Notes under the pieces: generated by a model
What the model saw: only the letters and a program-made list of their open reading frames with translations
What the model was told of the DNA's origin: nothing
The model's database searches: none
Made by a program: the position numbers and the translations under genes
Source of the DNA: a virus
Strand: one strand, 5' to 3'
IMG/VR virus record: IMGVR_UViG_3300045971_000163
Span: 40,140-104,139 of that record
DNA: 64,000 nt
Shown: positions 23,557 through 60,201 of the stretch, in pieces
Layout of the letters: the number at the start of each line of letters is the position of its first letter
Position numbering within the stretch: position 1 is the stretch's first letter

Positions 23557-26500
23557 TCAGCCTATAATATAGGAATCAAACGGGTCTATGTCGTATGGGT
23601 GTACTGGAGTACCATATTCTCCAAATCCATCGTCGTCAAACCTTGTATTGTTTGCGTTCGGATCAATTCTACCACCCAAATCACCAGGAGCAGACGGCAA
23701 GAACGACCTTCCAGCATGTAAGAATCTTGCTTGAATTGTCCCGCTATCAAATAAACCAACCCCGTCCACAATACGGTCTGTAGTAGCGTATGGAACAGCG
23801 ATAACGTTGTCAGCGTTTGGCACTGAGTCGTTTAACCAAGTCCGTTGTGGGACCGCAGTATCACCTGGAATTGTTTGATATTCTGAGGCGTCAACTACGC
23901 GAGATCCAATGTCGTGAACCGCTGCGACTCCAGTGCCGTTAGTTCCGCGGCGTAAGTTAAGGAGCAGGTTATTACTACGATCAATGCCGTAATACACAAT
24001 ACGCTCTCCGTTAATATACACTACACCAGGGCGTAAAAGCGATGGATTTGGCGTTGGTAAACCGCTAGTGTCTGCTACTGCTATTTGCCCAGGTGCCTTC
24101 ACCACGCTAACCAGTGCTGATGTGTTGCCCGTTTGCTTACGTGCAAACAGTAATGCGTCTGCTTCGTTTAGTGCCCTAACTACCTTACTGCCAGTATCAA
24201 ACGTTACAATCCATGAGTCCTGTGAATACAGTGGCGCTACTAGAGTTGTGGTGCTTGCTGCACTGATACGCTTGAACTCCCAATCTGGTGCTGATGTAAA
24301 TACTTCAGTCATTACTGTTGTAAAGTTACCTGGAGATACTTCAGTAGTTCTAGCCATTGGGTGAATCACTGTATTGATGTCGCGGCTGCGTAGTGTTAGT
24401 GTATTTGCAACGTAATCAACCCCGTAGAACAAGAATTTTTCACCTTCAATAAACACTGGGAGTGGATTCACTTGATCGTATGTTTTGTAAACTGGTTGCG
24501 GCGGCACAGATGCATCGAAATGGCTAAATGTTGGATCACTGAACATTGACACATCTGTGAGCTGTATTGTTAAATCTGCTGGTAACAAGTCAGCAGCTAG
24601 TGTTGTGGCATAGTTAGCCACATACTTCATAGGTTTTACTATTCTGTAACCAATGACTTGCGTTGTGCTCATATCAGCTGGCAACGTAAACACCTGCATG
24701 TCTAATGTGTCAAGCATCAAGCCTGGCACATATTCTTCAGGTGCGTGGCTGTTGTATTTGTCAATGAAGTAGCTGTTACCTAACTCTATTGAGCCGTCAG
24801 CGTCAGGGACATTAAAGAAGCTTTCAATGATTGTTTTTTCTTCGTCTGTGTCAAGGAATGTGGCGCCCACTACTTGGTCAGCAGTGTAACCGCCGCCCGT
24901 AAACAGTCGTGCATAGTCTTTTGGTGGCATACCTGGCACTGGATTGTAAAACTGGTCTACACGGTTAGCTGCGTTGCTATAACTATTTGCTGCGTCTATA
25001 GTATCAGGCACATAACTAATACGGTCAAACGTAAGTGTTGAGTCAAACGAGCGTATCGTATTGTTACGCATCATTACGTAGCCTTTAGCTGTTTGCTCAC
25101 CAGCAGCATCAATGCCGTCACCCAATATTTGTAGCTCTGGTGTTGATGTATAGCCTGAGCCTGGATTTATAACATTGATTTTAACGATAGCACCCGTATA
25201 GAAATCAATAACTGCTTCAAGCACTGCCCCAGATCCGCCACCGCCTACTGCCAACACTGTTGGTGGAAGTGAGTAGCCGTAGCCTTGGCTTGACATTTTT
25301 ACTGACTCAATAGAGTATGTATAGTTTGCTTTCCAGTCCGCATATTTTGTGTCGCTAGCAAGTAACAGGTCGTCTCTTGCATGTTCGCCAGACGGTGAGC
25401 GCCAAACGTTCAAGTCCGTGTCAAAGTATGCTGGCAAGTCAAAGTCAGTTGGCGTTACGTTTGCGGTTGTTGCTGCTTCATACTCTACAATATACTCACG
25501 TATCTTGGTTCTGTAAGGCTTAACTTCCTTAATGTATTCTTCGTAGAATGTTTGGTTGTCCCTAATATAACTTGGGAACTGCTCAAGTTTACGTAGTTTG
25601 TGCAACACAGAGATAAAGCTGGTTTTAAATGCCCAGTCAACCATACGTTGCTCAGATAGTATGTAGTTGAGCATTATAAAGAACAAGTTATTGAACTCAC
25701 CCTCTAGCGCACCCGTAAACAAGTCGTTTTTGACTGCGTTGAAAATATTGCGTATTTCAATAGTAGGGTTTAAATCAAATCTTACTTCGTCAAAGTTTGC
25801 ATTATCAAAGCCAATGTCACTGCTTTCGTGAGCCCAAAACGAGTTGGATATTTGTATAGTGCCGTCTTGTAATCCTACTAGCGTATGAGTTAAATCAGCC
25901 TCTATGCGATAAAACGCAAACTTCCCTTTGCCATTATCCTTAACAAACACCACATTGCTGTATGCTAGTTTTGTTAGTTTGGAAATGTCTTTAAACGTTG
26001 GTACGGTATATGTTGGTTTAACTGTAAAATCAAACGCACTATCATACCAGTCGTCAAACTCCCAGTAATCTGTCGTAGCATAACTTTGTGTTCTAAATAT
26101 AGTGTAAGTAAAATCTGCTTGAACTATGTATATAGCCCATTGATTATTATAACCATTATCAGACTTAACTAATACCTTACCATCAACTGGTAATGCATGT
26201 GGATTTAAATACGATAGTTCTTCAATTGTGTTAACTTCAGCAATATACATATATTCTGTTGGAATATTTTCAACCAAGTATAAAGTATCTAAGTTAAACT
26301 CAGATGCTGCTGGTTGTTTTTTTAATACTGAGTTTACATAGCCAGCAAACACACGCAATGCTTTCTGACGATTAACAATCATCGTTTGTTTTGGACGTAT
26401 GGCAACGCCATAACGTTCTGCAGGTGTTAGTTTATTGTCTGGGACTAAGTTGCCCATCATGTCAGTGCCTGCTAAACTGTCTATTAACTTAGCAACTATT

Positions 26501-29500
26501 TTATCTGGGATTTTAGCGAAAGTTGAGTTTTCTTTGACCAGTTCATATTCATTGTGTGACAATATGCTATTTTTAATGTTTGAGTAGTTAACTCGCAAAA
26601 TCGTGTCGTCTGCAGACAGCAACGAGTCAATGTTCACTAACGCAACGGCATTGTCCTTAATAACTTCCGCATAAGCTATGCCTTCTGTAGCTGGGCTATT
26701 AATCAAACTGGCAATACGCACTATACTCGCCCGTCGTGTGTTTGTCGCTGCATCTAATGTGTCTTTACCCGTTACCCAAAAGTAGTAGGTTGATTGGATA
26801 ACGCCGGTTACATTGTTTACTGCTAATTTTTCAGTGTATGCTGTATTACTACTGTAAACAGGTACGCCTGGCCCAGTGTAACTTGCTGGCGGCACTGTAC
26901 TCTTGACCCACTCGCATACTACAATCTCAGAGCCTGGGAACATTTGCCCCCAGTGTCTAATACGGTAATCTAAACCGTCTTGCTCGTAGTCTATATAGCG
27001 AACTTTAGATAAATCCCACCATACTTGACCAACTTTTTCTTCACCCCATACAAAAGTTTGATCCAGTGTAGTATCCGCCACGTGCGTGGTGTTGTACTGA
27101 GCTGGGTCATATGAGGTTTTGTAAGTAATATCTTGTTCCGCAATGCCAAGAATTTTGCCCTTAGCTGGATCAATATAATCAAGTGTATCAATAATTTGCT
27201 GTGTTTTCTTACTGTAAACCATCAAGCCGTCAATGCTTTCTAAATCAACTGTTGGGCTTTCTGATCTAAATAATGCCCAACCTGGAGTTTTGTTTTTGTT
27301 TGTAAAGTATGCAACACCACCGACGTCTAACGCCGTGTGATCATTTGTTGGCGATCCAACAAATATACCACCGTTGGCTGCTGCAAGTGCCGCCCCAAAG
27401 TTATCGCCCATACTAATAACTGAACTAGACAGGGATTGTGTGAACGAGTATACTGTTTCTGTAGCACTACGCAATGGCTCATAAACGTATACTGCACCAG
27501 CATTCGGAATACTGTCACTGAACATAGTAGTGCCACTATCTAGTAGGAAATCAGTATTATCTATTTGCATTGGGCCAAAGTTAGTTGCTCCTGAGCTAGA
27601 GATCGCAATTGCACCAGTTGCTGTATCTTCAGCAAACGCCACACCAAAATACTCTAGTGATTCGCTAAATGGTTTCTTTATTACTTGTACTATGTTAAAG
27701 TTACCAGTGCCGTCATTGACTAATCTATACACAACACCTGCGTGGTTGTCGTCTGTGATCTGGAATGGAGAACCAATCAACAACTCGTTGTTAGCAGTAA
27801 ACATTACTGTTTGTCCAAACTTTTCATTTGCTTGCGGTACTAATGACTCTATAACGTCAGTGACCGTAGTAAATGTAAATGTGCCTGGTACTGGCTCTGC
27901 TCTCTTGTATACAAATACTTTACCAGCATTAACTATGGCATTGCTTGGTGCTGTAGTAGCAGATATTACTAACAATGAGCCATCACTGTTTGTAGCAATA
28001 GAATCACCAAAGTTAATACCAGGTAACACTAAAGTATCTACTAGAATAGGATCAGACAATATAGTTTTAGTAAACGTTGTGGTGCTATTATCAAACGTCA
28101 TTATAAATTTAGCAAAACAAAGAACTGTGCCTTCTGTTGGCGACGATACAAAGAACCACATATCGTCTTTACTAATTGCAATACTATGACCATAGCTGTC
28201 ATTAGGCAACACTATTTCATCTGGTTCTATTGATGCCTGCTGTAAATTTTCTAAACTATAGTGAAGCAATTTGGTAGACAAATCCAAAGGATCAGTATGT
28301 GCATTTTGTGCACTAACTACGTATGACTTCGTGTTCATTGCGGCCGTTTTGCCTACAATGTAGTTATTGTTGTATTCCTCAATACCACCAACACCATTGT
28401 CCCTATACTTTAATAGGTGTGTAATGCTTGAACTCTTTAAGTATTCACCTGTAGCAGATTTAACATACATTGTCAAGCTATTTGATGTATTTCCTGGCGA
28501 GGTAACGATGACCACGCTGCCGTTGAAAGTAGACACTGTTGCCCCAAAGTTGCCATTAGCAACTTCGGTAAACTCTGTTAGGTTGGCTGAAAAATCCCAC
28601 AGTGAAGACTTTTTGTAAACTCCCCACTTAGCATCTATCGTGTTGTCCACCCACAGCATATCCGTATCAAGCCAGTCAAACACTGGTGGCGTCTTAGTAA
28701 CGATGTCTACGATTTCATTCACCCGTAAGCTATACAGTGTAAACATTGTGCCTGTGCCTTCTAAGCTTGGCACGGTTAGCATAGATTTTTCAAGTGTCGT
28801 AGAGATTGCTGCCACGATTGTATTAGCATCCTCCACTTGCGTTACCTTGTAGAACCCATCTACGGAGTCCATAAAGTTTTTCACTGTGAAGATATCGTTC
28901 ACTGCTAAGTGGTGTGGGCCGTCCGTTGAGAACCGTGCAGTTGTGTCAAGGTTGTAGTCTACGTTTGTTAGCATTGCTGCTGCTTGCGACACCCTAAACA
29001 CATTCCAATCACTCTTCAAGTCTTTCGCTACCCAGATCTTGAAACCTGCGTATAGTCTTGGCAACAATGCGTCTAATGCTGATGAGTGCTGTAAATCAAA
29101 CACCGTTGCGTCTATGTCATTCAAGTTTACATAGCCAGCAGTAAGTAAATCACCGTCGTATAGTGATGTCACTGACCTGTTGTTGAATAGCGTTGGTGTA
29201 AACTCACGAGATTTTTTATACAGTGTATTTTTGTTCTCTGCCACTGCGGCAATCGTAGAAGCCACTGCTCCAGGTTCAGTAAACTCCACAGTAAGCGGGA
29301 TATTCTTATATTTGCTGTCGGACAGTTGTACTTCCACAAACTTGTCTGTACCAGTGGCACCGTATTCACCAACTCTAAATGCCCATTCTTCGTTTACTTG
29401 AACATCACCCATCAAGTTATTAAACGTAGCAGATGTCAGTGCAGTAATGGCGTCTGTTGTGCCCTTGTCGCGGATATAGCCTTGGTAGAACTTAGTTTGT

Positions 29501-32500
29501 GACGTTGAGTTAATACCCAAGTCAGTTAAGTATGAACGTTCTTGGTAACCAATCAAGTTTGAACTATGAGATTGTATTTTCTCGTTAACCACGTTTGAGT
29601 CAACGTCATACATATCTATAAACTTGCTTGCGTTGTAAGATAAGTTAGGTAACAAGCTTGGTTTTATTGACTGGTTGACTGCTACAGCCCATTGCCCGAA
29701 GTTAAACGCAGTAGCAGCATCAATGTTGTCAATGGCAGTGTATATTATATTTTTATACTTGACTATCTCACCCTTTCTGTAATCAGATCCAGATGACCAG
29801 TTTTTGTATGCCGCGCCATAGTAAATAAAACCTGGTGGCGTTAGTTGTCCATCCCACGCACCTGTCTTGTTACCTATAACTTTTAATCTGAACTGTCTGT
29901 TACCCAACTCTGGTGAGTAGATTACATCGTTGAATGCAGTTTTGTTATCAAATACTAATACGTGCTCAAACTGCACCATATCAATGTCAGCAAATCCAAC
30001 AGTGTTGCCCACTGCTGAGCCAATCTCAAATGTTTGCCCCTCGCGTACTACGTTAAACTCAGTAGTTGGTATCAAGTTAAAGTTTGTATCTAATATCTTA
30101 GACCCAAGTGGCAGGTTATTGATTTGATCCGCAACAGCATTAGCGTAAATAACTTTAATCTTGTCCTTCACTGGACTCAATACTACAATGTTTCCAATAG
30201 CCCAGCCTTGTTGTGACCAAGTTAAAAACTCTTTTGCTGACAATGGCCAATCCATTGCCTCGCCAAGTTCGCGGTTAAACTCATCGAATATAAAACCTTG
30301 CGATTCCAAATATCTGCCATAGCTAACTAAAAAGTCAACCACTTGCTGCTTGTTCTTAAACTCTGTACCATACGGAATATCTAACTTCACACGTTGGTAA
30401 TCTGAATAGATTGTGGCGCTAGAGTTGAATATGTTTATAGTGTAGTTATTAGACGTTACTTCACTAGGAATAATAGTAAAATATGGATTTGCTATATCAT
30501 ATCCGCTAACTGAAAATCCTGCTGCTGTTTTCTCAATAATAACCGCGCTATACGACAATCTCTCCACTGGAGATGATTTGTGTAAGTAGACAGCATAGTT
30601 TTCATCTGGCACCATGATTGAACTGTTAGTGCTAGATGGACTGCTTTGTTCAGCCAATACACGTAAAAATGTCTTATCACTAAACCCAGCCATCTTGTAT
30701 GCCAGTTTAACGTCAAGATTCTCTAATAGCGGTGTAAGTATAGAATCTGGTGTTAGCCCGTTAGAGGTTATATAATCCACTACCCAGTTTAAGTAGCCAG
30801 CATTGCGGGTCACTTCTTTACCAACTAGTTTACCATTGATTTTAAAATCCAACTTGGTTAGGCGCCTATTGCTCACTGACGACGTAAACTGATCAATAAG
30901 TGAATTTCTGTAGTAATCGTGAACTGACGATAGCTGGCCAAAATACACGCCTGGTCGCATTAGCGCCAATGCTTGCTGTACCGCAAAAGGATAGTTACTG
31001 GATTTTCTCCATGCTGACTCCACTGGACCACCGTCCCCAATAGCAAATGCTAAATCTGTCTTGCCGCCGTCAAAGTTGCTAACTAAAAACTCGTATGGGG
31101 CACGTAATTCGCCATTTTCAGTAACCGGAATTATTTTGGATAAGCCAGGGCGAGCATAATTTACATCAATACCTGCTCGTGTCCCTTCTCTAATCAATCC
31201 TAACTCCAAGTCACCCCATAACACCAAGTTACCACCAGTGTATGGTGCTGGACCATAATAGTTTTCCCACCAGGTTGGCTTCATGCCAAATCCTAAACAT
31301 TCCCATGGGCGGGCATGCGGTGCGTCTGTGTCGTAGAAATAGTTAAAAATTCCGCGCCAGTAACCAGGCAACGCTGATCCATTGACAGTATCAGTGAATG
31401 CGTTATATGTCCACGAGAATGGGTTACCGCTTGTATACCATTGGTTAGAGCTGTAATCAACCTTGTTGTTGCCTAACCAGCGTAAAAAGTTACGTGATAC
31501 AATATTGTCGAAGTCTGATTTTGCGTAGTTGGTATTTCTAAAACGTCCAGGTACAACGGAGTTGATATCAAATGTGTGGTGGTCGTATACTGCTTTAATA
31601 TTGTTATAAATGCGTAACTCTAATTCCATTAGCAAGTTATCGCGTATATCGCCAAACGCTGGGGTAATACTTCCATCGTGACCGCGTATTGCGTTTATTG
31701 GAGTTGTATACGTATTATCTAAAAACACCTCAGGGACAAACTTAGGGTATAGACCTAGTTTAGTAGGAGTTTCAGGAACGTAGCAACCGTCGGTATTGTT
31801 AAACGTAGTTATAGTTATTACATCATCATATGATAACTTATGTAAAAACTTAACCGCGGGCCGTGTTTGATTGAATATATAATCCTGGCCCTTAACTAAC
31901 TGCACGCCGTTTACATATACTAATACTGCCTTGCTGCCTAAGTCAATGTCATTGAAGATGCTGTCTATTTCGTATTCAGCAATTTCTTCGTTCAACACGA
32001 TATCAGTGATCATTGACCTGTTAGCATCGTACGGTACCATGTCGCTGTAGTACCAAGGCATTTGCCTATTTTTCACTGCGTTCAACGACTTCATAATCAT
32101 GTCAACACCAGTAGCGGGATCAGTGACACCCGCATCAACTACCATCGCGTATGATTCTAAGAATCTGTTTTTAAACTTAACATACTCGTTTTGCGCTAGG
32201 GTAATACTGTCAATGAAGTTAGTGTTGCTGTTAAGCAAAAATACCGAGCTATATGCTGCGGGTGCGCTATGTTGTAAAATCTTGCCGCCAATGTCTTTTA
32301 CAAATATATCACGCAAGTTGCTATTGCCTGGTACATTACCAGTAATAGACAAACTATTTTCAGCTAGCGCAGTTACGTGGGAACTAATCTGTCCTAAACT
32401 TAAATTGTCAAACTTTGCGTTAAGTGCGTTAAACTCTAAACTTGGTGGTACTTCGTAGTAACCGAGTGCTGACACTGACTCAGAGTGTAAAAAGATGTCA

Positions 32501-35500
32501 ACTTTGTCTCCAGCAGCGATAGTAGACAATATTTTCACTGCTAACCGTACACCGTACGAAACGATCATATAGTCAGTGGTGGTGATAAGTTTATTGTTTA
32601 CATACACCTTAATATTTGGAGTACGTTTATTTTTCTTAGGCAATATGTCTATTTCAAAGAATGATGTTTTACCATCGCAAATATGCGAAATATTTTGATA
32701 CTGCTTTGTTTGCTCTACATTTTTCTCCCACAAGTTGCGTAACGCAAATGTGTCAATGTCAGTAATTTTACCAACAAACATATTTCCTATTAGGTGAGGT
32801 GTTTTCACCTTGTTCAATATGGTCGTAAACTCTTCTGTGTCAAAGTTATTTTGGAACACGATATCGCCAATGTTTGAAAAGTTGCGATACGATAAAGGGA
32901 ATTTCAATACTGTGTCTGTGTGGCCGTTACCAGTTTTATACGAGAATATTTTGCTGCCAGTGAACGTTGTACCAGGGTAGAATGCTACGTCTGATGCACT
33001 GTGTTTGTTCTCATCTAAGATGTCAAACAGTGGTGGTACGTTAATTGTTGTCTTTTGCTGAGCTGCTACCCATTCAGTTCCGTTAAACCAAAATGTAGTA
33101 CCTGTTACTAAGCCAACGTTATCAGCTAATACACCAGTTAGCACAATGCCCGCTGACGCCATTTTTGCTGGTAACTTAGAAAAATCTATTTGCCTAGCAT
33201 CTTTGTTAAACAACTGAGCTTTTGTTGCTCCACTAAGTGGAACAAGAGGAACCAACACACTACTTTTCGCAGTAACTGACTGATTTGTGACGATTGGCTC
33301 GTTAACTAGATCCGTTAAGTGCGCTTTTTTAACTGCGTTTATATCAATTGCGTCAATACTAAACACTTTATCTTTCACCGTGACATCGGAATCATTTGCA
33401 AAAATAATCTGGGCATTGCGTGAAATCCCCGCTGATTCCCAAAAAGTTTTATACTTGCTCGTTTGCACTAGCTGTATACTAGATCCAACACCAGTAACAT
33501 AATAATTTTTGCCCCTGTACTCTGCCTGAACTATTTTCTGTCCGAAAATAATAAGTAAACCATTTGCAAATTTAACGTTATTGGGACCAACATACTCTGT
33601 CTGTCCTAAAAAGTCGTTAACATTAAACGGATCAGTACTAGTACCTGGATCAATAACTAACCTGTTAACAATGGAACCCTCAACCTCGTTCATTGCGCTA
33701 ACTACTGTGAAGTCCAGCACATCAATATTAGAGTGGTAGTTAGTGCCGTAGTTAAACAGTTTTAAGTCTGCTTCAAACTCAATGATGGGACGTTTTGCCC
33801 TCATTGTATAATCCACGTTCGGCGTAGTATTATTGTATGTCGCTGTAGCTAGGATTACATCAGTATGGAACCAACGATTTGTTCTTGACCAAGCATTGCC
33901 GTCCACGCTAGCACGATTTATAGTAATGTAATCTGGCGTAAGTGGGCCATCTAAAATTTGATCATATTCACCATCGTCATACCCGTATAAATCAAACGGA
34001 ACCGTATCTACATTGGTGTCAAACTCAGGAGTAATAAGTGAGCTAACATCTACTAATCTAATGCTTGTGCCAACCCCCTCAACGTAGTAATCTTTTCCAC
34101 GATACTCTTCTTGAACTACGTTCCTGCCAAAGTTTATTTTTAGCCCATTGGTAAACGTTACCTTGTTGGGGCTTATATATTGTTTTTTACCTAAAAAGTC
34201 AGTAACATCCAATGGGTTGTCTGGGTTAGTAACTAATTTTATACGCCCGAAGAATTGTTGATCTGTTCCATCGTTATACCACAACTCAGTCAATGTAGCC
34301 GTTATTAACGGCACTTCAGTGATTGTACGCTCATCACTGCGGTAAAATTCTTTTGCCGCGTTCAGTGAGCCTGCTTTAATATATACTTTGTTACGTACTG
34401 GAATAGGAGTTATAGGGTTAAGTCTCACAACTTTATCACCGTTGACCTCAATAATGGCGATTTCCCATACACCAAATCTAGCATCACCAGTAATAATTCT
34501 ACCAGCAGAATAAGGTATTCTGTTAGTAATAACAGACGGCACAAGAGGAGTACCGTCAGTCATTGACCCGTCCTCGCCCCAGTTTCCATTGGCGTAAATA
34601 CCTGGTTCTTTCCAAGCATCATCAGTCATATCGTTGTTGATGAAAATCAACTTCCTACCAGCAACAATATCAGTAGCACCATCTATGCCGCCATTTTTAA
34701 TAACGGTTGAAAGCAGTTGATTGCTAAGTTGCGAAAATGCAGTGGTTGATGCGTAGTCTACATCTGTTGCTGCGTATGGCATTTCAGTGTAGAATGCTTG
34801 CGCGGTGATAGGCGGCACCGTAAAGGTTATAGTACCAGCGTCAGTGCCGTTTTCAGAAACACCCATAACATTACGTGTGTTAATGTTGGCTTGATTTTTA
34901 CGGAAACCTGACACGCCTGGATCTGTTTGAATCCAAAACTTGAATCCCGGCTGATTCACGATGAAAGTGTATGTGCCGCCTCGTGCTAGCACAATGTCAG
35001 GATTTTCAGAATTTTTCGCGTTGCTAAACTTGTATGAGTTCGTTGATGTATCACGTGTTACTGTAAACGTACTGTCTGTGTCAACCAAACCTGTAAATAC
35101 CTCAACTGCATCTGGACCGTGTGGCATCCAGTAATACTGATTAAAGTTAACCAGCTTATCAAAATCCACCAACCCATTAAACGAGTATGCTTCGTTCGCA
35201 AACAAGCGAGAGTGATTCGCAGCAGATCCACCGTAATATTCAATCTGTTGCAGTAAGTCTGTATAGCTACCAAAAAAGTTAATATTGTTGTCAGAGTCTG
35301 TAGAAACTACACTTGGCTCAAACTGATAGTTTTGGCGAGAAGTGCTTGGCTCAGGGAGATAGTTGTCTGTTGAGTGATATGTTGGTGCAAATTTACGGCC
35401 AATATATCCGTTAAGCTTCTTAAAATTTGGCTCTGCTATTAACTGATCAACAGTAGCATTTAAAAACTTTCTGTTGGCAGGAGTTTTAAAAACTTCTGGC

Positions 35501-35526
35501 AGAAAATTAATAGTTTTAGTAGACAT
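23557..35526 (-). CDS. Giant (3989 aa) virion structural protein, probably baseplate wedge (gp7-like position)
   Basis: Follows the gp6-like gene. Contains FG-GAP-like propeller repeats (NFGxxxA) and GxGYT/GGGGSGA repeats. Late-promoter-like GGTAAATA upstream. Confidence 0.7.
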   Translation of the reverse strand: MSTKTINFLPEVFKTPANRKFLNATVDQLIAEPNFKKLNGYIGRKFAPTYHSTDNYLPEPSTSRQNYQFEPSVVSTDSDNNINFFGSYTDLLQQIEYYGGSAANHSRLFANEAYSFNGLVDFDKLVNFNQYYWMPHGPDAVEVFTGLVDTDSTFTVTRDTSTNSYKFSNAKNSENPDIVLARGGTYTFIVNQPGFKFWIQTDPGVSGFRKNQANINTRNVMGVSENGTDAGTITFTVPPITAQAFYTEMPYAATDVDYASTTAFSQLSNQLLSTVIKNGGIDGATDIVAGRKLIFINNDMTDDAWKEPGIYANGNWGEDGSMTDGTPLVPSVITNRIPYSAGRIITGDARFGVWEIAIIEVNGDKVVRLNPITPIPVRNKVYIKAGSLNAAKEFYRSDERTITEVPLITATLTELWYNDGTDQQFFGRIKLVTNPDNPLDVTDFLGKKQYISPNKVTFTNGLKINFGRNVVQEEYRGKDYYVEGVGTSIRLVDVSSLITPEFDTNVDTVPFDLYGYDDGEYDQILDGPLTPDYITINRASVDGNAWSRTNRWFHTDVILATATYNNTTPNVDYTMRAKRPIIEFEADLKLFNYGTNYHSNIDVLDFTVVSAMNEVEGSIVNRLVIDPGTSTDPFNVNDFLGQTEYVGPNNVKFANGLLIIFGQKIVQAEYRGKNYYVTGVGSSIQLVQTSKYKTFWESAGISRNAQIIFANDSDVTVKDKVFSIDAIDINAVKKAHLTDLVNEPIVTNQSVTAKSSVLVPLVPLSGATKAQLFNKDARQIDFSKLPAKMASAGIVLTGVLADNVGLVTGTTFWFNGTEWVAAQQKTTINVPPLFDILDENKHSASDVAFYPGTTFTGSKIFSYKTGNGHTDTVLKFPLSYRNFSNIGDIVFQNNFDTEEFTTILNKVKTPHLIGNMFVGKITDIDTFALRNLWEKNVEQTKQYQNISHICDGKTSFFEIDILPKKNKRTPNIKVYVNNKLITTTDYMIVSYGVRLAVKILSTIAAGDKVDIFLHSESVSALGYYEVPPSLEFNALNAKFDNLSLGQISSHVTALAENSLSITGNVPGNSNLRDIFVKDIGGKILQHSAPAAYSSVFLLNSNTNFIDSITLAQNEYVKFKNRFLESYAMVVDAGVTDPATGVDMIMKSLNAVKNRQMPWYYSDMVPYDANRSMITDIVLNEEIAEYEIDSIFNDIDLGSKAVLVYVNGVQLVKGQDYIFNQTRPAVKFLHKLSYDDVITITTFNNTDGCYVPETPTKLGLYPKFVPEVFLDNTYTTPINAIRGHDGSITPAFGDIRDNLLMELELRIYNNIKAVYDHHTFDINSVVPGRFRNTNYAKSDFDNIVSRNFLRWLGNNKVDYSSNQWYTSGNPFSWTYNAFTDTVNGSALPGYWRGIFNYFYDTDAPHARPWECLGFGMKPTWWENYYGPAPYTGGNLVLWGDLELGLIREGTRAGIDVNYARPGLSKIIPVTENGELRAPYEFLVSNFDGGKTDLAFAIGDGGPVESAWRKSSNYPFAVQQALALMRPGVYFGQLSSVHDYYRNSLIDQFTSSVSNRRLTKLDFKINGKLVGKEVTRNAGYLNWVVDYITSNGLTPDSILTPLLENLDVKLAYKMAGFSDKTFLRVLAEQSSPSSTNSSIMVPDENYAVYLHKSSPVERLSYSAVIIEKTAAGFSVSGYDIANPYFTIIPSEVTSNNYTINIFNSSATIYSDYQRVKLDIPYGTEFKNKQQVVDFLVSYGRYLESQGFIFDEFNRELGEAMDWPLSAKEFLTWSQQGWAIGNIVVLSPVKDKIKVIYANAVADQINNLPLGSKILDTNFNLIPTTEFNVVREGQTFEIGSAVGNTVGFADIDMVQFEHVLVFDNKTAFNDVIYSPELGNRQFRLKVIGNKTGAWDGQLTPPGFIYYGAAYKNWSSGSDYRKGEIVKYKNIIYTAIDNIDAATAFNFGQWAVAVNQSIKPSLLPNLSYNASKFIDMYDVDSNVVNEKIQSHSSNLIGYQERSYLTDLGINSTSQTKFYQGYIRDKGTTDAITALTSATFNNLMGDVQVNEEWAFRVGEYGATGTDKFVEVQLSDSKYKNIPLTVEFTEPGAVASTIAAVAENKNTLYKKSREFTPTLFNNRSVTSLYDGDLLTAGYVNLNDIDATVFDLQHSSALDALLPRLYAGFKIWVAKDLKSDWNVFRVSQAAAMLTNVDYNLDTTARFSTDGPHHLAVNDIFTVKNFMDSVDGFYKVTQVEDANTIVAAISTTLEKSMLTVPSLEGTGTMFTLYSLRVNEIVDIVTKTPPVFDWLDTDMLWVDNTIDAKWGVYKKSSLWDFSANLTEFTEVANGNFGATVSTFNGSVVIVTSPGNTSNSLTMYVKSATGEYLKSSSITHLLKYRDNGVGGIEEYNNNYIVGKTAAMNTKSYVVSAQNAHTDPLDLSTKLLHYSLENLQQASIEPDEIVLPNDSYGHSIAISKDDMWFFVSSPTEGTVLCFAKFIMTFDNSTTTFTKTILSDPILVDTLVLPGINFGDSIATNSDGSLLVISATTAPSNAIVNAGKVFVYKRAEPVPGTFTFTTVTDVIESLVPQANEKFGQTVMFTANNELLIGSPFQITDDNHAGVVYRLVNDGTGNFNIVQVIKKPFSESLEYFGVAFAEDTATGAIAISSSGATNFGPMQIDNTDFLLDSGTTMFSDSIPNAGAVYVYEPLRSATETVYSFTQSLSSSVISMGDNFGAALAAANGGIFVGSPTNDHTALDVGGVAYFTNKNKTPGWALFRSESPTVDLESIDGLMVYSKKTQQIIDTLDYIDPAKGKILGIAEQDITYKTSYDPAQYNTTHVADTTLDQTFVWGEEKVGQVWWDLSKVRYIDYEQDGLDYRIRHWGQMFPGSEIVVCEWVKSTVPPASYTGPGVPVYSSNTAYTEKLAVNNVTGVIQSTYYFWVTGKDTLDAATNTRRASIVRIASLINSPATEGIAYAEVIKDNAVALVNIDSLLSADDTILRVNYSNIKNSILSHNEYELVKENSTFAKIPDKIVAKLIDSLAGTDMMGNLVPDNKLTPAERYGVAIRPKQTMIVNRQKALRVFAGYVNSVLKKQPAASEFNLDTLYLVENIPTEYMYIAEVNTIEELSYLNPHALPVDGKVLVKSDNGYNNQWAIYIVQADFTYTIFRTQSYATTDYWEFDDWYDSAFDFTVKPTYTVPTFKDISKLTKLAYSNVVFVKDNGKGKFAFYRIEADLTHTLVGLQDGTIQISNSFWAHESSDIGFDNANFDEVRFDLNPTIEIRNIFNAVKNDLFTGALEGEFNNLFFIMLNYILSEQRMVDWAFKTSFISVLHKLRKLEQFPSYIRDNQTFYEEYIKEVKPYRTKIREYIVEYEAATTANVTPTDFDLPAYFDTDLNVWRSPSGEHARDDLLLASDTKYADWKANYTYSIESVKMSSQGYGYSLPPTVLAVGGGGSGAVLEAVIDFYTGAIVKINVINPGSGYTSTPELQILGDGIDAAGEQTAKGYVMMRNNTIRSFDSTLTFDRISYVPDTIDAANSYSNAANRVDQFYNPVPGMPPKDYARLFTGGGYTADQVVGATFLDTDEEKTIIESFFNVPDADGSIELGNSYFIDKYNSHAPEEYVPGLMLDTLDMQVFTLPADMSTTQVIGYRIVKPMKYVANYATTLAADLLPADLTIQLTDVSMFSDPTFSHFDASVPPQPVYKTYDQVNPLPVFIEGEKFLFYGVDYVANTLTLRSRDINTVIHPMARTTEVSPGNFTTVMTEVFTSAPDWEFKRISAASTTTLVAPLYSQDSWIVTFDTGSKVVRALNEADALLFARKQTGNTSALVSVVKAPGQIAVADTSGLPTPNPSLLRPGVVYINGERIVYYGIDRSNNLLLNLRRGTNGTGVAAVHDIGSRVVDASEYQTIPGDTAVPQRTWLNDSVPNADNVIAVPYATTDRIVDGVGLFDSGTIQARFLHAGRSFLPSAPGDLGGRIDPNANNTRFDDDGFGEYGTPVHPYDIDPFDSYIIG

Positions 35527-48800: not shown

Positions 48801-50572
48801 CATTCTTAATCCGCAACTTAACGGTTAAAAATTTCATGAGCGTGGGTAATAACACGCAAGCAATTAACTTTGACAGAAAAGACTTAACACTCGTGCTAGG
48901 TGAGAACTTAGACTTGGGTGGCGACGATAGCGGTGCACGTAACGGCACTGGCAAAACAACTATTGCTAATGCGTTAAGTTATGCTTTCTTTGGGCAAGCA
49001 CTAACAAATATAAAAAAAGATAATTTAATTAATAAAACGAACGGCAAGGGCATGCTGGTTACGATTGAGTTTATTAAAGATGGTGTAACTTATCGTATTG
49101 AGCGTGGACGCAAACCTGCAGTGTTGGAACTATACAAGGGTGATGTCGCGTTTGAAGCAAAGGACAACGATGCTCAAGGTGACTCGCGTGAGACTCAGAA
49201 CGAAATCGATAAAATTTTGTGCATGTCACCCGACATGTTCCGCCACATTGTCGCCCTTAACACATATACTGAGCCATTTCTTAGTTTGCGAGCTAATGAT
49301 CAACGGATTATCATTGAGCAGCTACTAGGGATTACGGTTTTAAGTGAGAAGTCGGAAGCACTTAAAGAGCAAATTAGGCTTTCCAAAGAAACAGTAACAT
49401 CCGAAGAGCATAGAATTAAAGCTATCACCGAGGCTAACAAGAAGATTGAAGAGCAAGTGGTTGCTATTAAGCGTAGGCAAGCACTATGGGACACAAAGCA
49501 TGAGGAAGAGCTTACTGAGTTGTCAGGATCGCTGGGAGAAATGCTTACCATCGACGTGGATCACGAAATTGAGCAGCATAGGTTGCTTGCTGAGTGGACT
49601 CTTAAAGATTCAGAGTTATCGTCGTTGGGTGAATTGTTATCTCGCACTGAAACTGACATGGCTCGTGAAGATAAGGCAATTACAAAACTGTTAGCAGAGA
49701 TTGAGAACATCAAGGACCATAAGTGTCATACTTGCGGGCAAGAGTTACACGACGAAAAGCAAAGTGAAATCTTAGCTGCTAAGGATGCTACGTTAGCAGA
49801 GCATGTTAACAAGTTGGCTGACTTGATGGAGAAGAAAGACGTCACTGTTGGTAAAATAGAGCAGTGTGGAGAGTTATACGCTAAACCCAACACGCATTAT
49901 AAAAAAGCGTTAGACGCACACAATCACAAAAATACAGTTAACAACTTAACAGCACAGCTAGAGGCTAAGTTGGCAGAGGAGAATCCATACACTGATCAAA
50001 TTAGTGAAATGGAAACTTCCGCATTGATCCCAGTTGACTATTCCTTGATAGACAAAACAAACAAAACTAAAGAGCATCAAGAGTTCTTGCTTAAACTGTT
50101 AACAAACAAAGATTCGTTTATTCGTAAGAGAATCATTGATCAAAACTTAACCTACTTAAACGCTAGATTGTCACATTACTTAGATAAAATTGGTCTACCA
50201 CATACTGTTGTATTCCAAAGTGACCTCAGTGTTAACATTGAGGAACTAGGTCGTGAGTTAGACTTTGACAACTTGAGCAGGGGTGAGCGTGGGCGGTTAA
50301 TATTGTCGTTGAACTTTGCTTTTAGAGATGTTTGGGAAAGTTTGTATGAAAAGATAAATATATTAATAGTTGATGAACTTCTTGACAACGGATTAGATGC
50401 TAGTGGTGTAGAAGCATCATTTGGAATTTTAAAGAAAATGTCAAGAGATTATGAAAAAAGTATTTGGCTAATATCACACCGTGATGATCTAACAGCAAGG
50501 GCAACTAGCATATTAAAAGTAATTAAAGACGGAGGATTTACTACATATTCTGGAGTAGGAAATGAATTATGA
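48797..50572 (+). CDS. gp46: Recombination ATPase subunit (Rad50/SbcC-like)
   Basis: KNFMSVG, Walker A NGTGKTT, zinc hook CHTC, LSRGE, Walker B LIVDE and ISH. Likely start MTFLIR at 48797. Confidence 0.92.
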   Translation: MTFLIRNLTVKNFMSVGNNTQAINFDRKDLTLVLGENLDLGGDDSGARNGTGKTTIANALSYAFFGQALTNIKKDNLINKTNGKGMLVTIEFIKDGVTYRIERGRKPAVLELYKGDVAFEAKDNDAQGDSRETQNEIDKILCMSPDMFRHIVALNTYTEPFLSLRANDQRIIIEQLLGITVLSEKSEALKEQIRLSKETVTSEEHRIKAITEANKKIEEQVVAIKRRQALWDTKHEEELTELSGSLGEMLTIDVDHEIEQHRLLAEWTLKDSELSSLGELLSRTETDMAREDKAITKLLAEIENIKDHKCHTCGQELHDEKQSEILAAKDATLAEHVNKLADLMEKKDVTVGKIEQCGELYAKPNTHYKKALDAHNHKNTVNNLTAQLEAKLAEENPYTDQISEMETSALIPVDYSLIDKTNKTKEHQEFLLKLLTNKDSFIRKRIIDQNLTYLNARLSHYLDKIGLPHTVVFQSDLSVNIEELGRELDFDNLSRGERGRLILSLNFAFRDVWESLYEKINILIVDELLDNGLDASGVEASFGILKKMSRDYEKSIWLISHRDDLTARATSILKVIKDGGFTTYSGVGNEL

Positions 50573-51314
50573 AAATATATACAATTTAATCGTGTCACGT
50601 GCTAAAATAAGACCTTTACTATCTTTTGAGATTCATCATATTTTACCAAAATCACTAGGCGGCGATAATTCTATAGAAAATTTAGTTCAGCTTACTCATA
50701 AAGAGCATATTTTGTGTCATGAATTATTATGGAAAAAATATAGAAAATTGGTTGGCATCAACCATGAGTCAACAAGAAAAATGGCACATGCTTTCCATTT
50801 TTTAATGACTGACCACAATGGATTAAGATTTCCTTCAATACGGCAGGCTGCTTTAGCATTAGTTGCAGCAAGAGAAGCACAATTGGGTAAAAAATTATCA
50901 GAAGACACTAAACATAAAATAAGTCTTGGTCATAAAGGACAAATACCTTGGAATAAAAATATGCAAGGATGGGCATCTACAGAAACTTCAGAAAAAATTA
51001 GCAATGCTAATAAAGGAAACAAACATGCGTTAGGTATTAAACTCAATGAGAGCCAATTAGTTCGTAGAAGTGAAATTAACTCAGGCATTAATAACCCAAT
51101 GTTTGGGCACTCGCATAGTGAGAAATCACGTAAAGCAATGAGTGATTCACAAAAACAATTATGGACTCTTGAACGAAGAAAACAATATAGCAATGTTGCT
51201 TTATCTAGAAAGAAAATTATGTGTAATCATTGTGGCAAAAAAGCAACTGCTGGTATGTTTGCCAGGTGGCATGGGCAAAACTGTAAAAATTACAACGCAG
51301 ACACAAATGACTAA
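50562..51314 (+). CDS. Free-standing HNH homing endonuclease with NUMOD3-like repeats
   Basis: EIHHILPKSLGG...NLVQLTHKEH...H, HSEKSRKAMS, NPMFG and C-terminal CNHC...WHG.NC. Confidence 0.85.
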   Translation: MNYENIYNLIVSRAKIRPLLSFEIHHILPKSLGGDNSIENLVQLTHKEHILCHELLWKKYRKLVGINHESTRKMAHAFHFLMTDHNGLRFPSIRQAALALVAAREAQLGKKLSEDTKHKISLGHKGQIPWNKNMQGWASTETSEKISNANKGNKHALGIKLNESQLVRRSEINSGINNPMFGHSHSEKSRKAMSDSQKQLWTLERRKQYSNVALSRKKIMCNHCGKKATAGMFARWHGQNCKNYNADTND

Positions 51315-51367: not shown

Positions 51368-51553
51368 ATGGCAACACATGAAGATATCGTAGCAGCATTC
51401 ACAACTTATATTGATGAATCACTAAAATTTGAAGACAAGGGCGTAAAAGCCGCAGCAGCTCGCGCTCGTGCAGCATTGGGTGATGTAGCTAAATTAGCTA
51501 AAGTACGCCGAGCTGAGATTCAGGAAAAGAAAAATCTGATGGCAAAAGCATAA
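51368..51553 (+). CDS. Small histone H1-like (Hc1-type) DNA-binding protein
   Basis: KFEDKGVKAAAARARAAL...KVRRAEIQEKKN; strong AGGAG ribosome-binding site. Confidence 0.65.
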   Translation: MATHEDIVAAFTTYIDESLKFEDKGVKAAAARARAALGDVAKLAKVRRAEIQEKKNLMAKA

Positions 51554-51581: not shown

Positions 51582-52307
51582 ATGCTTATGATTTTTCTTG
51601 ATAACAAATATACTAACTGGTATTTTAACATAGTAGCGAATGCGAAACAAACAGCAGCATATACTGAAAAGCACCACATTGTTCCAAGATCATTGGGTGG
51701 TAGTAACGACAAGAGCAACATAATAAAGTTATCCGCAAGAGAGCATTTTATTTGTCACTGGTTATTATCAAAGATGTGTGCTGGTAATGAAAGAAACAAA
51801 ATGGTGTATGCTTTGTTTATGATGAAGAAAGAATCAAAACAGCATCAACGATATTTTACACCTATCACAAGCCGTGTTTTTGAAAAATATAAATCTTGTC
51901 TTCGTCATTCAGATGAAACTAAACAAAAGATGAGGAAGCCCAAATCTCAAGTTCATTGTAATAACATAAGTAAGGCGAGACAAGGTATTGCGTTTAGTGA
52001 TCAACAAATTCATAATATGAGTATTGCTCACAAAGGAATTGTGACATATAAACGAACAGATAAGCACCGTGAGATTACAAGAAATATACATAAAAATAAA
52101 GTTGTATCTGAAGAATCAAGAAAAAAGATGAGTGAATCGCACATAGGAAAATCGCCAGGCAACAAGGGAGTTCAGCTATCAGTAGAACAAAAGGCACTAC
52201 GGCCATGGCACCATTGTTCTATATGTGGGACAAAATCTCAAAATAAAGCAAATATAGTACGATACCACGGAAACAATTGTAAAAATGGCAGTAAACGGAA
52301 AGAATAA
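51582..52307 (+). CDS. Free-standing HNH homing endonuclease with NUMOD3-like repeats
   Basis: YTEKHHIVPRSLGG...REHFICHWLL, HSDETKQKM, SEESRKKMSESH and CSIC...YHGNNC. Confidence 0.85.
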   Translation: MLMIFLDNKYTNWYFNIVANAKQTAAYTEKHHIVPRSLGGSNDKSNIIKLSAREHFICHWLLSKMCAGNERNKMVYALFMMKKESKQHQRYFTPITSRVFEKYKSCLRHSDETKQKMRKPKSQVHCNNISKARQGIAFSDQQIHNMSIAHKGIVTYKRTDKHREITRNIHKNKVVSEESRKKMSESHIGKSPGNKGVQLSVEQKALRPWHHCSICGTKSQNKANIVRYHGNNCKNGSKRKE

Positions 52308-52782
52308 AGGAAGCTCTTTTGAACGGAAGATAGCAAATTTGCTATCTGAACGATTTGAGCCCATAACAGGGATTAAGTCATCGTTTAGAAGGAATCCAGA
52401 TTCTGGCTCGTTCTTTGGTGGGACTAATAAAAAACGCACAGTAACACATGATTTAAGTCATGCTAACTTTGGGGACATTATTTGCCCAGAAAACTTTAAG
52501 TTTTCCGTAGAGTGCAAGCATTATAAAACAGGGCCATCGTTTGCTGCCATTGTGAAGGGTAAAATCACGCAATGGGACACGTGGATAGCGCAAGCTTCGC
52601 AGGATGCTGAAAGTAGCCAGCGAAGCATGATGCTTATTATCAAGTATAACGGTGTCGATGAGATCGTTATAACTGAAAAACAGCTAGACCTAGAATCAAA
52701 ACTAATATATAATAAATTCGTAGGGTACCGTTTAGCTGATGTATTATCATTACCCGACGAAGACTTTTTTATAAAAACTTAA
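52285..52782 (+). CDS. Holliday junction resolvase (PD-(D/E)xK, Hjc-like)
   Basis: GKNKGSSFERKIA, GDII and VECKHY. Confidence 0.8.
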   Translation: MAVNGKNKGSSFERKIANLLSERFEPITGIKSSFRRNPDSGSFFGGTNKKRTVTHDLSHANFGDIICPENFKFSVECKHYKTGPSFAAIVKGKITQWDTWIAQASQDAESSQRSMMLIIKYNGVDEIVITEKQLDLESKLIYNKFVGYRLADVLSLPDEDFFIKT

Positions 52783-52910
52783 ACCCACTTCTGAGACCAT
52801 CTCAAATCACACGTTAACAAACCCAAACCCCATGCAAGCGTCAAGTGACCATGTGTTAGTAGGGCAAGTTAATATCCATAGGTTACAACAGAGACAAACT
52901 CTTATACTTT

Positions 52911-53498
52911 TTCAGGTATTTTTCTAGTAACAACTCACACGCTTCATTCGCCGTAAGTTAGTTGACACAAGGATTTGCACGGAGTCCAAATTGTTCCGTG
53001 TGCTAAGGCCCTCATTGGTGGTGTGGCCCACTAGCGTAAGTGCAAGTCAGCACGATCTAACACACTGCGATGAGCAGTCCTTAAAATAATATCAACCCCA
53101 GAGCCATGAGTTGCGCTGGAGCGATGTTTTAGTGTTAGTTTATATAGGTTTTAAATGTGGTTGGTGGTTAATGACACGCGGTATATCCCACCAAATCAGC
53201 GGAAAGTGCTAAGATAACGATCCGATCAAAACTGATGACACACGCCTGGATCCGTACGGAGTAATGCTCATGTGCGGTAGGAGAGACATAGCCAGTTCCC
53301 CCTCCTAAAGAAATTTCAGAATCTAGTGGTACGCGACGGTAAGGTACAACGTAAATGGGATTAGGATAGGAACGATTCGGTTTTTTCTATCTTCTTTCCA
53401 CATTTACCGTGGTCTGACTCTGGTAAGATAGGACTTCAATACCGGCTTCGCCTAATACCTGAATACCAAAACACCCAACCACCAATACTGGCTATAAG
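52911..53498 (+). ncRNA. Putative large structured non-coding RNA of unknown family
   Basis: ORF-free gap. A 10-bp closing helix (52911-52920 / 53454-53463) encloses more than 10 nested helices. A 3' tail can form pseudoknots. G-U pairs favour the plus strand. Confidence 0.7.
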
Positions 53499-53512
53499 GA
53501 AAGGGATAAAAC

Positions 53513-53558
53513 GCTCGAGACGCGATAGCGTCGAAGAGCAGTAGTGCGTAGCACTACT
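53513..53558. other. Tandem GC-rich hairpins with GATA and GTA loops
   Basis: GCTC-GA-GACGC[GATA]GCGTC-GAA-GAGC, immediately followed by AGTAGTGC[GTA]GCACTACT. Confidence 0.75.
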
Positions 53559-53586
53559 ATATAACAATCACACTTTGATTTTGCTA

Positions 53587-53805
53587 TTAGAAAAATGGCA
53601 ATCCAGATTTTTTAGTGGTCTCGAGATTATCTTTAACGATCTTGTTGATCATTTCACGTTCTGAAAACGATAATAGCATAGCGTCCTCATAAGAAAGACC
53701 ACCCCGCATAAACCAGCTTAGTTTGAGTGCTTCTTCTTTGAAGGCTTTTGCCTCTTTCTCCATTTTGCCGATATACCCTTCGATTCTATCGGCGGGCAGT
53801 GACAA
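53587..53805 (-). CDS. Small tail/baseplate assembly chaperone ORF (gp51-like), probably reached by -1 frameshift
   Basis: WFMRGGLSYEDAMLLS..ERE. Weak TTG start with no ribosome-binding site; frame is open back to the slippery site. Confidence 0.7.
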   Translation of the reverse strand: MSLPADRIEGYIGKMEKEAKAFKEEALKLSWFMRGGLSYEDAMLLSFSEREMINKIVKDNLETTKKSGLPFF

Positions 53806-53810
53806 AAGCC

Positions 53811-54647
53811 TTAGGCGAAAAAATTAGAATAGTCGAATGATAAGGTTATGTCGAAGTTATGTCCGCAAGATGAGCAAGCAACATTAACTGGCTTGATTTT
53901 TGCTGTTTCTGCATGCGCAGATAATACATCTTTTACTTTGACAGTAATTTGCCTACCAGTGTTCTTAAAGAACTCAACAATAAATGCATGATTAGTAACT
54001 TTAACCCCATCCTCTGTTAAGATGTATTCTATTGAGTCAGCGTATAAATCATTTGTCATTTCAACAATACGTGTTAAGTGATTTGTAAACTGTTCAGTTT
54101 TCTCAGCATCGTTTAACGTAACGTCACGTATTGTGTTAAGCAACTTTTGCTCTTCAAAGTTTACTAAGTTTGCTTTGGTTACGTCGGAGTATTTCCTAGG
54201 CTTAAACTTAAACGTTAGCCCATCAACTTGCAACTGCTCGTTATAGTTTGGTGGTCTAATAGATCCAAGCACATTATTCAAATCAATATTGTACGAGTTC
54301 TCTTCGTCACATTTTGGGCACTTAGCTTCAACTTCCATCATATTTGTATAGCTAGCAATGCGTATTGCTACTAAAATAGCATCTACGTCAATAGATGGCA
54401 TTTCCCAAGCATTTTTAATTTCTGGAATACAAGATTGGATCACGCTTACTACCCCGCTACCGTTAAGTAGTGCGTCAGGAGTCCTGAGAGTAATCTCATC
54501 TTTAGTAGTCATTGAGTATACTGGAATTTCCCCAGTTACTGGCAACGATAGAGCATTCTCTGGCCAAAAAGAACCCCCGCTTGGTAGTTTGATGTAAATG
54601 GCTGGCTGGCGAAAGTGCTTGAAAAGTGGATTACTAGAATCTGTCAT
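53811..54647 (-). CDS. Baseplate hub / tail assembly chaperone (gp26-like)
   Basis: YIKLPSGG, MTTKDE, D..AILVAIRIASY, CPKC and CSSC...NFF. Confidence 0.75.
   Translation of the reverse strand: MTDSSNPLFKHFRQPAIYIKLPSGGSFWPENALSLPVTGEIPVYSMTTKDEITLRTPDALLNGSGVVSVIQSCIPEIKNAWEMPSIDVDAILVAIRIASYTNMMEVEAKCPKCDEENSYNIDLNNVLGSIRPPNYNEQLQVDGLTFKFKPRKYSDVTKANLVNFEEQKLLNTIRDVTLNDAEKTEQFTNHLTRIVEMTNDLYADSIEYILTEDGVKVTNHAFIVEFFKNTGRQITVKVKDVLSAHAETAKIKPVNVACSSCGHNFDITLSFDYSNFFA
53817..53823 (-). other. Putative -1 ribosomal frameshift site T TTT TTC
   Basis: Minus strand AAT TTT TTC GCC TAA. The -1 frame reads TTT TTT CGC CTA AGG CTT TTG TCA into the downstream ORF. Confidence 0.7.
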
Positions 54648-59776: not shown

Positions 59777-59800
59777 AATAGATTTTGGTTAAATAGTATT

Positions 59801-60079
59801 ATGCATATTGTAGAATTATTCCTAGTCGAAGCGGAGGAGAATGCCGATGATCAAGAGCCTATTGAAAATGGTTCCACTCCTGATGGTTACTCTACGGATG
59901 CTGATGATCAGTCTATTCTTACTTTATCTGATCTTCGGAAAACCAGGCTTACACTAAGCCAACTCAATAAATTACGCCAAATGAATGACGTAAAAAAGAT
60001 TGAGCACGAACAAAAGTTGAAATCTCTCTCGTCTATGTATAAACCAGCAGAACAAGATGCTGGTGGTATGGGCATGTAA
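59801..60079 (+). CDS. Hypothetical head-module protein
   Basis: RKTRLTLSQLNKLR; GTTAAATA lies 5 nt upstream. Confidence 0.75.
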   Translation: MHIVELFLVEAEENADDQEPIENGSTPDGYSTDADDQSILTLSDLRKTRLTLSQLNKLRQMNDVKKIEHEQKLKSLSSMYKPAEQDAGGMGM

Positions 60080-60201
60080 TTTAGCGCAAAACTGCGCAAA
60101 TTCCTAGTTAGCCTGTCAAGACTCTCCAAAAAACACTACTATTACACTATTTCTAGTGTAAATGAGTAAATAAATTTATAAAACCACATTAGGAGTCTTT
60201 T

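Follow-up and report, generated by a model that had tools for sequence, protein, structure and literature searches.

Covariation supports a candidate family of large structured RNAs behind a resolvase-like nuclease gene in metagenomic phages

To our knowledge, few classes of large (>400 nt) bacterial or phage noncoding RNA with complex conserved folds are known, and such large classes have tended toward revealing new biochemistry. ROOL and GOLLD are large ornate phage-associated RNAs and are usually found among tRNA genes. A catalogue of 10,006 viral csRNA contains motifs 29 to 151 nt long (PMC10690425). Polynucleobacter-1 RNA (RF01718) was catalogued in 2010 by Weinberg et al. (PMC2864571), and RNA-seq of the jumbo phage PA5oct identified four ncRNAs, at 8.3, 22, 103, and 246 kb (Lood et al. 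2020, PMC7318152).

The stretch of DNA analyzed here (the window) makes up the right-hand 64 kb of a 104-kb contig from IMG/VR, which derives from an uncultured giant T4-like phage and is estimated to represent 29% of the genome. Judged by Rad50, the nearest cultured relatives are the PA5oct-like Pseudomonas jumbo phages (49% amino acid identity). An earlier reading of the sequence had proposed that a gap at 52783 to 53586 holds a large, pseudoknotted noncoding RNA. The gap is as that original prediction described it: its longest ORF has 43 amino acids, and it is the longest stretch of the window without an ORF of at least 100 amino acids, the runner-up being ~425 nt at 59777 to 60201. We found no conserved ORF in the gap, either in the window or in the homologous loci, and ARAGORN identified no tRNA or tmRNA gene in the 64 kb. 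The gap sits between two convergent units. A plus-strand unit encoding, in order, Mre11/SbcD-like, Rad50/SbcC-like, HNH/NUMOD3, 61-amino-acid Hc1-like, HNH/NUMOD3, and PDDEXK_15 proteins ends with the PDDEXK gene, which is full length in comparison with 33 homologues, and the putative RNA lies directly 3′ of this gene on the same strand. From the other side, on the minus strand, the gene for a conserved 72-amino-acid protein faces the PDDEXK gene across the gap.

The two HNH/NUMOD3 homing endonuclease genes (50562 to 51314 and 51582 to 52307, plus strand) flank the Hc1-like gene and, because the syntenic locus L065 has neither, both appear to have been inserted into the recombination operon recently. 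The 61-amino-acid protein (51368 to 51553, plus strand) matches the chlamydial histone H1-like protein Hc1 (PF07432, E = 1.5e-10), and in relatives its gene is conserved beside the nuclease gene; the protein is a candidate nucleic-acid-binding partner of the RNA. A small DUF5710 ORF of 72 to 86 amino acids lies between the RNA and the 72-amino-acid gene in three other loci (L065:10263-10502, L050:5185-5445, and L051:5258-5476, plus strand); neither the window nor L114 has it.

A search of the whole window with Rfam 15 gave no match at gathering thresholds, and between 52600 and 53800 only five noise matches (E = 7 to 8) appeared at E ≤ 10, in agreement with the original prediction, which could not place the RNA in a named family; the homologous loci L050, L051, and L114 had no Rfam match at E ≤ 0.1. 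The likeness that had been drawn to ROOL and GOLLD did not extend beyond size. Those RNAs are likewise >400 nt, multidomain, phage-borne, and noncoding, but neither model matched, the window offers no tRNA neighborhood, and the phage group and genomic context are different. The group I introns of T4-like phages share with the window RNA their size class, a multihelix pseudoknotted fold, and HNH homing endonuclease neighbors; however, no group I or group II intron model matched even at E ≤ 10, no gene is split, and there is no downstream exon. The PA5oct ncRNAs are noncoding transcripts of a related jumbo phage, but all of them lie off the syntenic region (75.7 to 77.9 kb). In PA5oct, that region (L103:9030-10542 in NC_071039.1, ~75.7 to 77.2 kb) is a stretch of ~1.5 kb with four annotated ORFs of 38 to 50 amino acids; it matches neither of the two RNA families described below and is not among the four published ncRNAs.

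Using nhmmer on loci fetched via flanking proteins and conserved words, we found that a core of ~450 nt (~52961 to 53410, plus strand; conservation spans about 52958 to 53430) is kept at ~70 to 80% identity in five other distinct contigs (L050, L051, L064, L099, and L114). L064 is represented by many identical copies, and the distinct variants, the window included, number six. Gene order is the same in all of the homologues, with the genes for Mre11, Rad50, the Hc1-like protein, and the PDDEXK nuclease ahead of the gap and those for the 72-amino-acid and baseplate proteins behind it. Pattern scans with GATGAGCAGTCCTTAAA, GGAGCGATGTTTTAG, and CTGCGATGAGCAGTCC on viral contigs, with GGAGCGATGTTTTAGNNNTAG on metagenome contigs, and with CTGCGATGAGCAGTCC also on genome contigs returned only L064, its identical copies, and L099, the remaining matches being due to chance and mostly coding, while a protein-guided scan with the PDDEXK alignment added L114. 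The loci of ~120 further PDDEXK homologues lie outside the searched set. The gap gave no blastn match among 50,697 cultured-phage records. A covariance model made of domain II and helix H9 (see the table) was run on 100 related loci, on PA5oct and Atu_ph07, and on the rest of the window's own contig and found no further member, and the combination of nhmmer and this model returned only noise from PA5oct and Atu_ph07 (best E in PA5oct, 0.14). Thus, this family, which we call family A, appears to be rare, and its rarity and its occurrence in metagenomes only are practical limits on work with it.

The checks put forward with the original prediction included one against shuffled sequence and one for covariation and conservation in relatives. 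The first came out negative for the window sequence: the minimum free energy of the whole gap was little removed from that of shuffles (z = −1.70 on the plus strand and −1.66 on the minus strand), and that of the conserved core was indistinguishable from it (z = −0.28 and −0.83, respectively). As folding energy is no better than shuffled, the case for an RNA rests on covariation, for which the second check was clearly positive. For four sequences, RNAalifold predicted 86 pairs, of which 33 showed compensatory changes. We then scored a curated comparative model of 11 helices and 61 pairs, restricted to reliably aligned columns and counted on six sequences, against shuffles and against a slid control in which partners were shifted by 1 to 3 columns. 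In the curated model 93.7% of cells were paired (81.2% in shuffles, 31 to 45% with slid partners), 32 of the 61 pairs had changed on both sides (11.8 ± 2.4 in shuffles, 3 to 8 with slid partners), and there were 50 further pair types (37.8 in shuffles, 13 to 26 with slid partners); on none of these three measures did any of 500 shuffles score as high, although the shuffle control overstates significance because the six distinct sequences are related by descent.

L099 and L114 joined the alignment after the helices had first been derived from four sequences, and they keep H2, H3, H4, and H9 with new compensatory pairs, examples of the new pair types being GUCUAG/CUAGAU in H2, GAUCUAGUAU/AUACUAGAAU in H4, and CCGGUAG/CUACCGG in H9. 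The helices persist across 25 to 35% sequence divergence, loops and junctions are conserved as well, and length differences fall at helix tips: L064 and L099 have an additional hairpin behind H5, a lengthened H7, ~50 extra nt within H10, and a long H12. It is conceivable that the core has no function, having been conserved through recent descent, and that the pairing is an artifact of fitting few related sequences. A folding energy equal to that of shuffles would suit this explanation, as would a sample of only six, and related sequences can beat shuffles; against it stand the excess over shuffles of both-side changes and of further pair types, the measures on which such an artifact should weigh least, the collapse of the former with slid partners, and the survival of helices through divergence and through indels placed at their tips. 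We therefore consider an absence of function very improbable.

The curated model contains invariant G-U pairs, and the consensus energy from RNAalifold was better on the plus strand (−148.7) than on the minus strand (−138.8), which together assign the RNA to the plus strand. In this respect, and in being large and multidomain, the covarying RNA is the one that had been proposed. We put the probability that the gap encodes a stand-alone, highly structured plus-strand noncoding RNA with a core of ~450 nt, as the comparative sequence analysis suggests, at roughly 60%.

When subdomains were folded separately for each homologue, the same topology was obtained. The domain I three-way junction recurred in independent folds of the window, L051, L064, and L114, and helix H11 with the two hairpins that it closes folded independently in all six homologues. 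The stem of H14 differs among homologues (GUAC/GUAC, UGCA/UGCA, GUAA/UUAC, and UGCAC/GUGCA). The conserved 3′ tail is complementary to the loop of H14 and also to UAAAUGUGG at 53152-60, which precedes H9. Both complementarities are conserved with little covariation, and the two pairings are plausible candidate pseudoknots. No helix joining the 5′ and 3′ ends was found to be consistent across the full-length homologues.

Features of the gap and of the genes beside it (positions in the window; helices are given as 5′ arm/3′ arm)
Feature	Position	Strand	Evidence or remarks
PDDEXK_15 nuclease gene, resolvase-like	52285..52782	+	PF24608, E 1.9e-25; phrog_244 RusA-like resolvase
5′ motif E, GAGACCAUCUC, 11-nt hairpin GAGA-CCA-UCUC	52793..52803	+	Single copy in the 64-kb window
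Degenerate second E copy, AGAGACAAACUCU	52890..52902	+	Alignments; U-rich trailer same as in L064
Domain I, three-way junction H1-H3	52961..53051	+	91-100% of cells paired; 11/20 pairs compensatory (model helices 1-4)
H1	52961-66/53046-51	+	GUUGAC/GUCAGC; covaries
Hairpin H2	52977-82/52996-53001	+	Domain I
Hairpin H3	53002-05/53032-35 plus 53007-10/53025-28	+	Domain I
Domain II, H4 closing H5-H7	53054..53141	+	Model helices 5-8
Closing helix H4	53054-63/53132-41	+	5/10 pairs compensatory
Hairpin H5, loop GAUGA	53064-68/53074-78	+	Invariant
H6	53089-93/53123-27	+	Domain II
H7	53098-101/53116-19	+	Domain II; CCAGAG pairs with CGCUGG
Hairpin H9	53161-67/53188-94	+	100% paired; 5/7 pairs compensatory
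Helix H10, encloses variable-length region	53195-99/53232-36	+	4/5 pairs compensatory
ACACGCC box, then H11 block	53240..53319	+	Between H10 and H11
Helix H11	53246-50/53315-19	+	3/5 pairs compensatory (CUGGA/UUCAG, CUUCG/CGAAG, CGUUAC/GUAGCG)
Hairpin H12, variable, inside H11	53252-57/53272-77	+	Folds
Hairpin H13, conserved loop GACAUAGNCAAUCC (GACAUAG.CAAUCC), inside H11	53278-83/53302-07	+	Folds
Hairpin H14, conserved loop GCGACGG.AA	53329-32/53344-47	+	Hairpin in 4/6 homologues
Hairpin H15	53363-71/53385-93	+	Folds in 6/6
Conserved 3′ tail CCACAUUUACCGU (CACAUUU.CCGUG)	53398-53410	+	Ends core
3′ hairpin GACGC-GAUA-GCGUC	53519-32	+	Conserved; covaries in family B
3′ hairpin AGUAGUGC-GUA-GCACUACU	53540-58	+	Conserved; covaries in family B
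72-aa protein gene, conserved, convergent downstream	53587..53805	−	ORF list; same order in L050, L051, L052, L065
Baseplate hub gene, after 72-aa gene	53811-54647	−	PF12322 T4_baseplate; phrog_150 baseplate hub

Every helix arm quoted in the original prediction does occur in the window where it had been placed, and the local hairpins were largely right, whereas the long-range layout was mostly replaced by other covarying helices. The hairpins TGCACGG/CCGTGTG, TTGGTGG/CCACCAA, TAGGAG/CTCCTA, and AGGATAGGA/TTCTATCTT were supported, as was CCGTAC/GTGCGG, at whose position a hairpin folds in all six homologues. For TAAATGTGG/CCACATTTA the support was weak, the YAAA/UUUR part being kept and the remainder not. 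The seven helices unique to the earlier model had 75% of their cells paired on the same alignment. GTTGA/TCAAC, AAGGATT/AGTCCTT, CTCATTG/CGATGAG, CCAGAG/CTCTGG, CCATG/CGTGG, and ATCC/GGAT were unsupported. The first three showed no compensatory change and several disruptions, and the covarying helices H1, H3, and H4 take their place; AAGGATT/AGTCCTT and CTCATTG/CGATGAG might instead reflect invariant segments that meet in a tertiary or kissing contact. CCAGAG, which had been paired with CTCTGG, forms the local helix H7 rather than reaching a partner 320 nt away. Both arms of the proposed closing helix (52911-20/53454-63) lie in the flanks of the core, which are conserved in no relative. The single-sequence minimum free energy fold of the first two domains reproduces the Domain 1 that had been proposed, so the earlier architecture is what the window sequence taken by itself suggests.

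Hairpins frame the core on both sides. The E hairpin lies 29 to 165 nt upstream of the core in every homologue, and its fifth pair is U-A in some of them and A-U in others. It is present in all family A loci and in L052 and L053 and was missing from every other locus searched (58 loci; PDDEXK loci of at least 4.5 kb). The degenerate second copy suggests that ~100 nt of leader has been duplicated specifically in the window's phage. Ahead of the E hairpin, neither a sigma-70-like nor a T4-late-like promoter was conserved. The two conserved 3′ hairpins probably mark the transcript end and/or act as terminators for the convergent units. Complements of the conserved loops within the window, as potential antisense targets, were chance 10- to 12-mers only.

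The original prediction implied that the RNA is unique, but in many related phages this slot is occupied by a second large structured RNA, which is already catalogued in part. In an all-versus-all comparison of gaps, we found this second RNA, family B, in the same gap of at least 18 more distant relatives. It is 400 to 450 nt long, and among 18 aligned sequences 24 of 38 pairs are compensatory. With the 141-position RF01718 model and a threshold of at least 37 bits, the 5′ third of family B was identified as Polynucleobacter-1 RNA in L008 (105.9 bits) and L029 (103.9 bits), in the same slot, while the same model had no match in the window or the 104-kb contig even at E ≤ 1. The comparative evidence argues that family A is a real and new family of large structured phage RNA, its novelty being tempered because related phages have, at the equivalent position, this RNA that is in part catalogued.

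Family B is marked by twin boxes, identical 7-mers at two places in 17 of the 18 sequences, for which eight different words are used. The boxes (L029:5114-5277, minus strand, and other rows of the alignment) have the form xGAUxAx, the three positions marked x differing between sequences; the variable G/A of the first module is paired with a C/U 7 to 10 bases upstream, whereas that of the second module is not. Family A contains no twin boxes, its only invariant repeated 6-mers being GCGAUG and GUUUUA.

The twin-box RNA and the window RNA share their slot, their strand, and a 3′ hairpin motif. Both lie downstream of a small nuclease gene, on its strand and convergent with the 72-amino-acid and baseplate genes; both are of similar size with a multidomain covarying fold; and both end in a GAGCG(N)AAGCG hairpin followed by a hairpin with a GNA loop. 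However, their cores have no detectable homology. We recognized a family B core by a long-range helix enclosing a GGGGG-UACCGGACAACCG-CCUCC hairpin and then a UUUGCCC hairpin. A covariance model of this core (R1), built on 18 sequences, matched L113 (E = 2.7e-05) and, marginally and partially, L162 (E = 0.17); it had no match in the gaps of L050, L051, L065, L099, L114, and the window or in the window's own contig. Conversely, the family A model found no family B locus among 100 related loci. A family B nhmmer profile matched family A only at the 3′ motif GAGCG(N)AAGCGAAA (L114, E = 5.9e-05; L050, E = 0.0086), and the short resemblances ACACGCC, a hairpin with a UCAA(U/C)C loop, and AAUCUAGAUG had no statistical support.

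The RNA may be contained in a transcript of ~770 nt that spans the leader and the 3′ hairpins (from the E hairpin, 52793, to the pair at 53519-58). With no conserved promoter ahead of it, the RNA would arise when transcription of the rightward recombination operon (Mre11/Rad50/Hc1-like/PDDEXK) reads through, and it could then be trimmed or protected at the E hairpin on the 5′ side and at the GCGAUAGC and GUA-loop hairpins on the 3′ side. Once released, it might use its invariant single-stranded loops (GCGAUGAGC, GGAGCGAUGUUUUAG, GACAUAG.CAAUCC, and GCGACGG) to act in trans, either as a folded scaffold or as part of an RNP, and a ribozyme is another option for a shape-dependent RNA released from the 3′ end of an operon. 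The fold and the invariant loops are kept across ~30% divergence, and a second elaborate RNA occupies the same place, which suggests that the RNA works through its three-dimensional shape and makes a mere terminator unlikely. Its slot is the one that the twin-box/Polynucleobacter-1 RNA occupies in sister phages, and the two RNAs therefore probably have the same task during infection. Both the trans action and this functional equivalence we infer from position only.

The position is also what one would expect of a cis-acting 3′ untranslated element that stabilizes the operon mRNA or insulates or terminates the convergent units and has no function in trans. Rightward and leftward transcription meet exactly here, no promoter of its own was found for the RNA, and the 3′-end hairpins are conserved and common to the sister family. 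Such an element would need only a hairpin or two, however, and not ~450 nt with an 11-helix covarying model and invariant loops, and the finding of two unrelated large cores at the same place argues for a demanding function at the RNA level. On balance, a purely cis-acting role seems unlikely. A replication-origin or primer RNA, which by folding would make or regulate a lasting R-loop from which DNA replication is primed, has precedents in RNA II of ColE1 and in the T4 oriF and oriG transcripts, and the gap does adjoin recombination and replication genes. The gap is nevertheless free of iterons and direct repeats of note, and what covariation reveals is selection for a fold of the RNA rather than for a DNA-RNA hybrid. 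An origin RNA strikes us as quite improbable here. A stand-alone RNA acting as a folded molecule is the reading that we retain.

L052 (4547-5078, plus strand) comes from a close relative whose nuclease is 70% identical to that of the window, and its gap has a folding z of −4.96. It combines the window-type E hairpin with a family B core, the boxes of which are unusual (ACAGAAA/ACAGAAG), and is thus a natural hybrid of the two RNA types. The PDDEXK protein tree, built to ask whether the two RNA types had been exchanged, was too poorly resolved for an answer; it is compatible with one origin per RNA type and with either divergence of A from B or its replacement. The presence of either an A or a B core in the slot of related phages, together with the two HNH/NUMOD3 genes just upstream and the apparent duplication of the leader in the window's phage, might be taken to mean that the RNA is the remnant or cargo of a mobile element, such as a self-splicing intron that has degenerated or a homing cassette associated with its HNH neighbors. 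We give this explanation hardly any credence: relatives that carry the RNA have no HNH genes, intron models fail to match as described above, the PDDEXK gene is complete with no host gene split, and the PDDEXK tree lacks the resolution that would reveal an exchange.

The window RNA adds a second architecture, with no detectable relationship to the first, at the locus that carries the twin-box/Polynucleobacter-1 RNA in hundreds of aquatic giant phages. Comparison of families A and B could narrow down the role of the locus, the flanking hairpins, the position after the nuclease gene, and the strand being shared while the cores and the twin boxes are not, and the pair offers a natural swap experiment. 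A bolder and rather doubtful proposal is that one fixed locus behind the resolvase-like nuclease gene serves giant T4-like phages as a slot for interchangeable large structured RNAs, with the window carrying the second type (A) within the same frame of 5′ and 3′ hairpins. If so, a single essential RNA function would be served by two different folds, either through convergence or because one took the place of the other. The RNA might then be a ribozyme, a decoy against host defense, or the scaffold of an RNP involved in virion assembly or in replication/recombination.

Further ORF-free gaps, 756 to 1,281 nt long, lie behind the nuclease gene at L117:3104-4384, L162:2999-3754, and L180:2999-3791 and may hold more RNA types in the same slot. 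L170, L171, and L172 have ~2.5 kb after the nuclease gene (~3016 to 5507) with no ORF of at least 60 amino acids save two of 68 to 75 amino acids; an RNA cluster, a tRNA cluster, and another genetic code are all possible explanations. Elsewhere in the window, a single ORF of 3,989 amino acids (23557 to 35526, minus strand) is followed by ORFs of 1,134, 696, and 1,027 amino acids, and these four presumably encode giant virion or fiber proteins.
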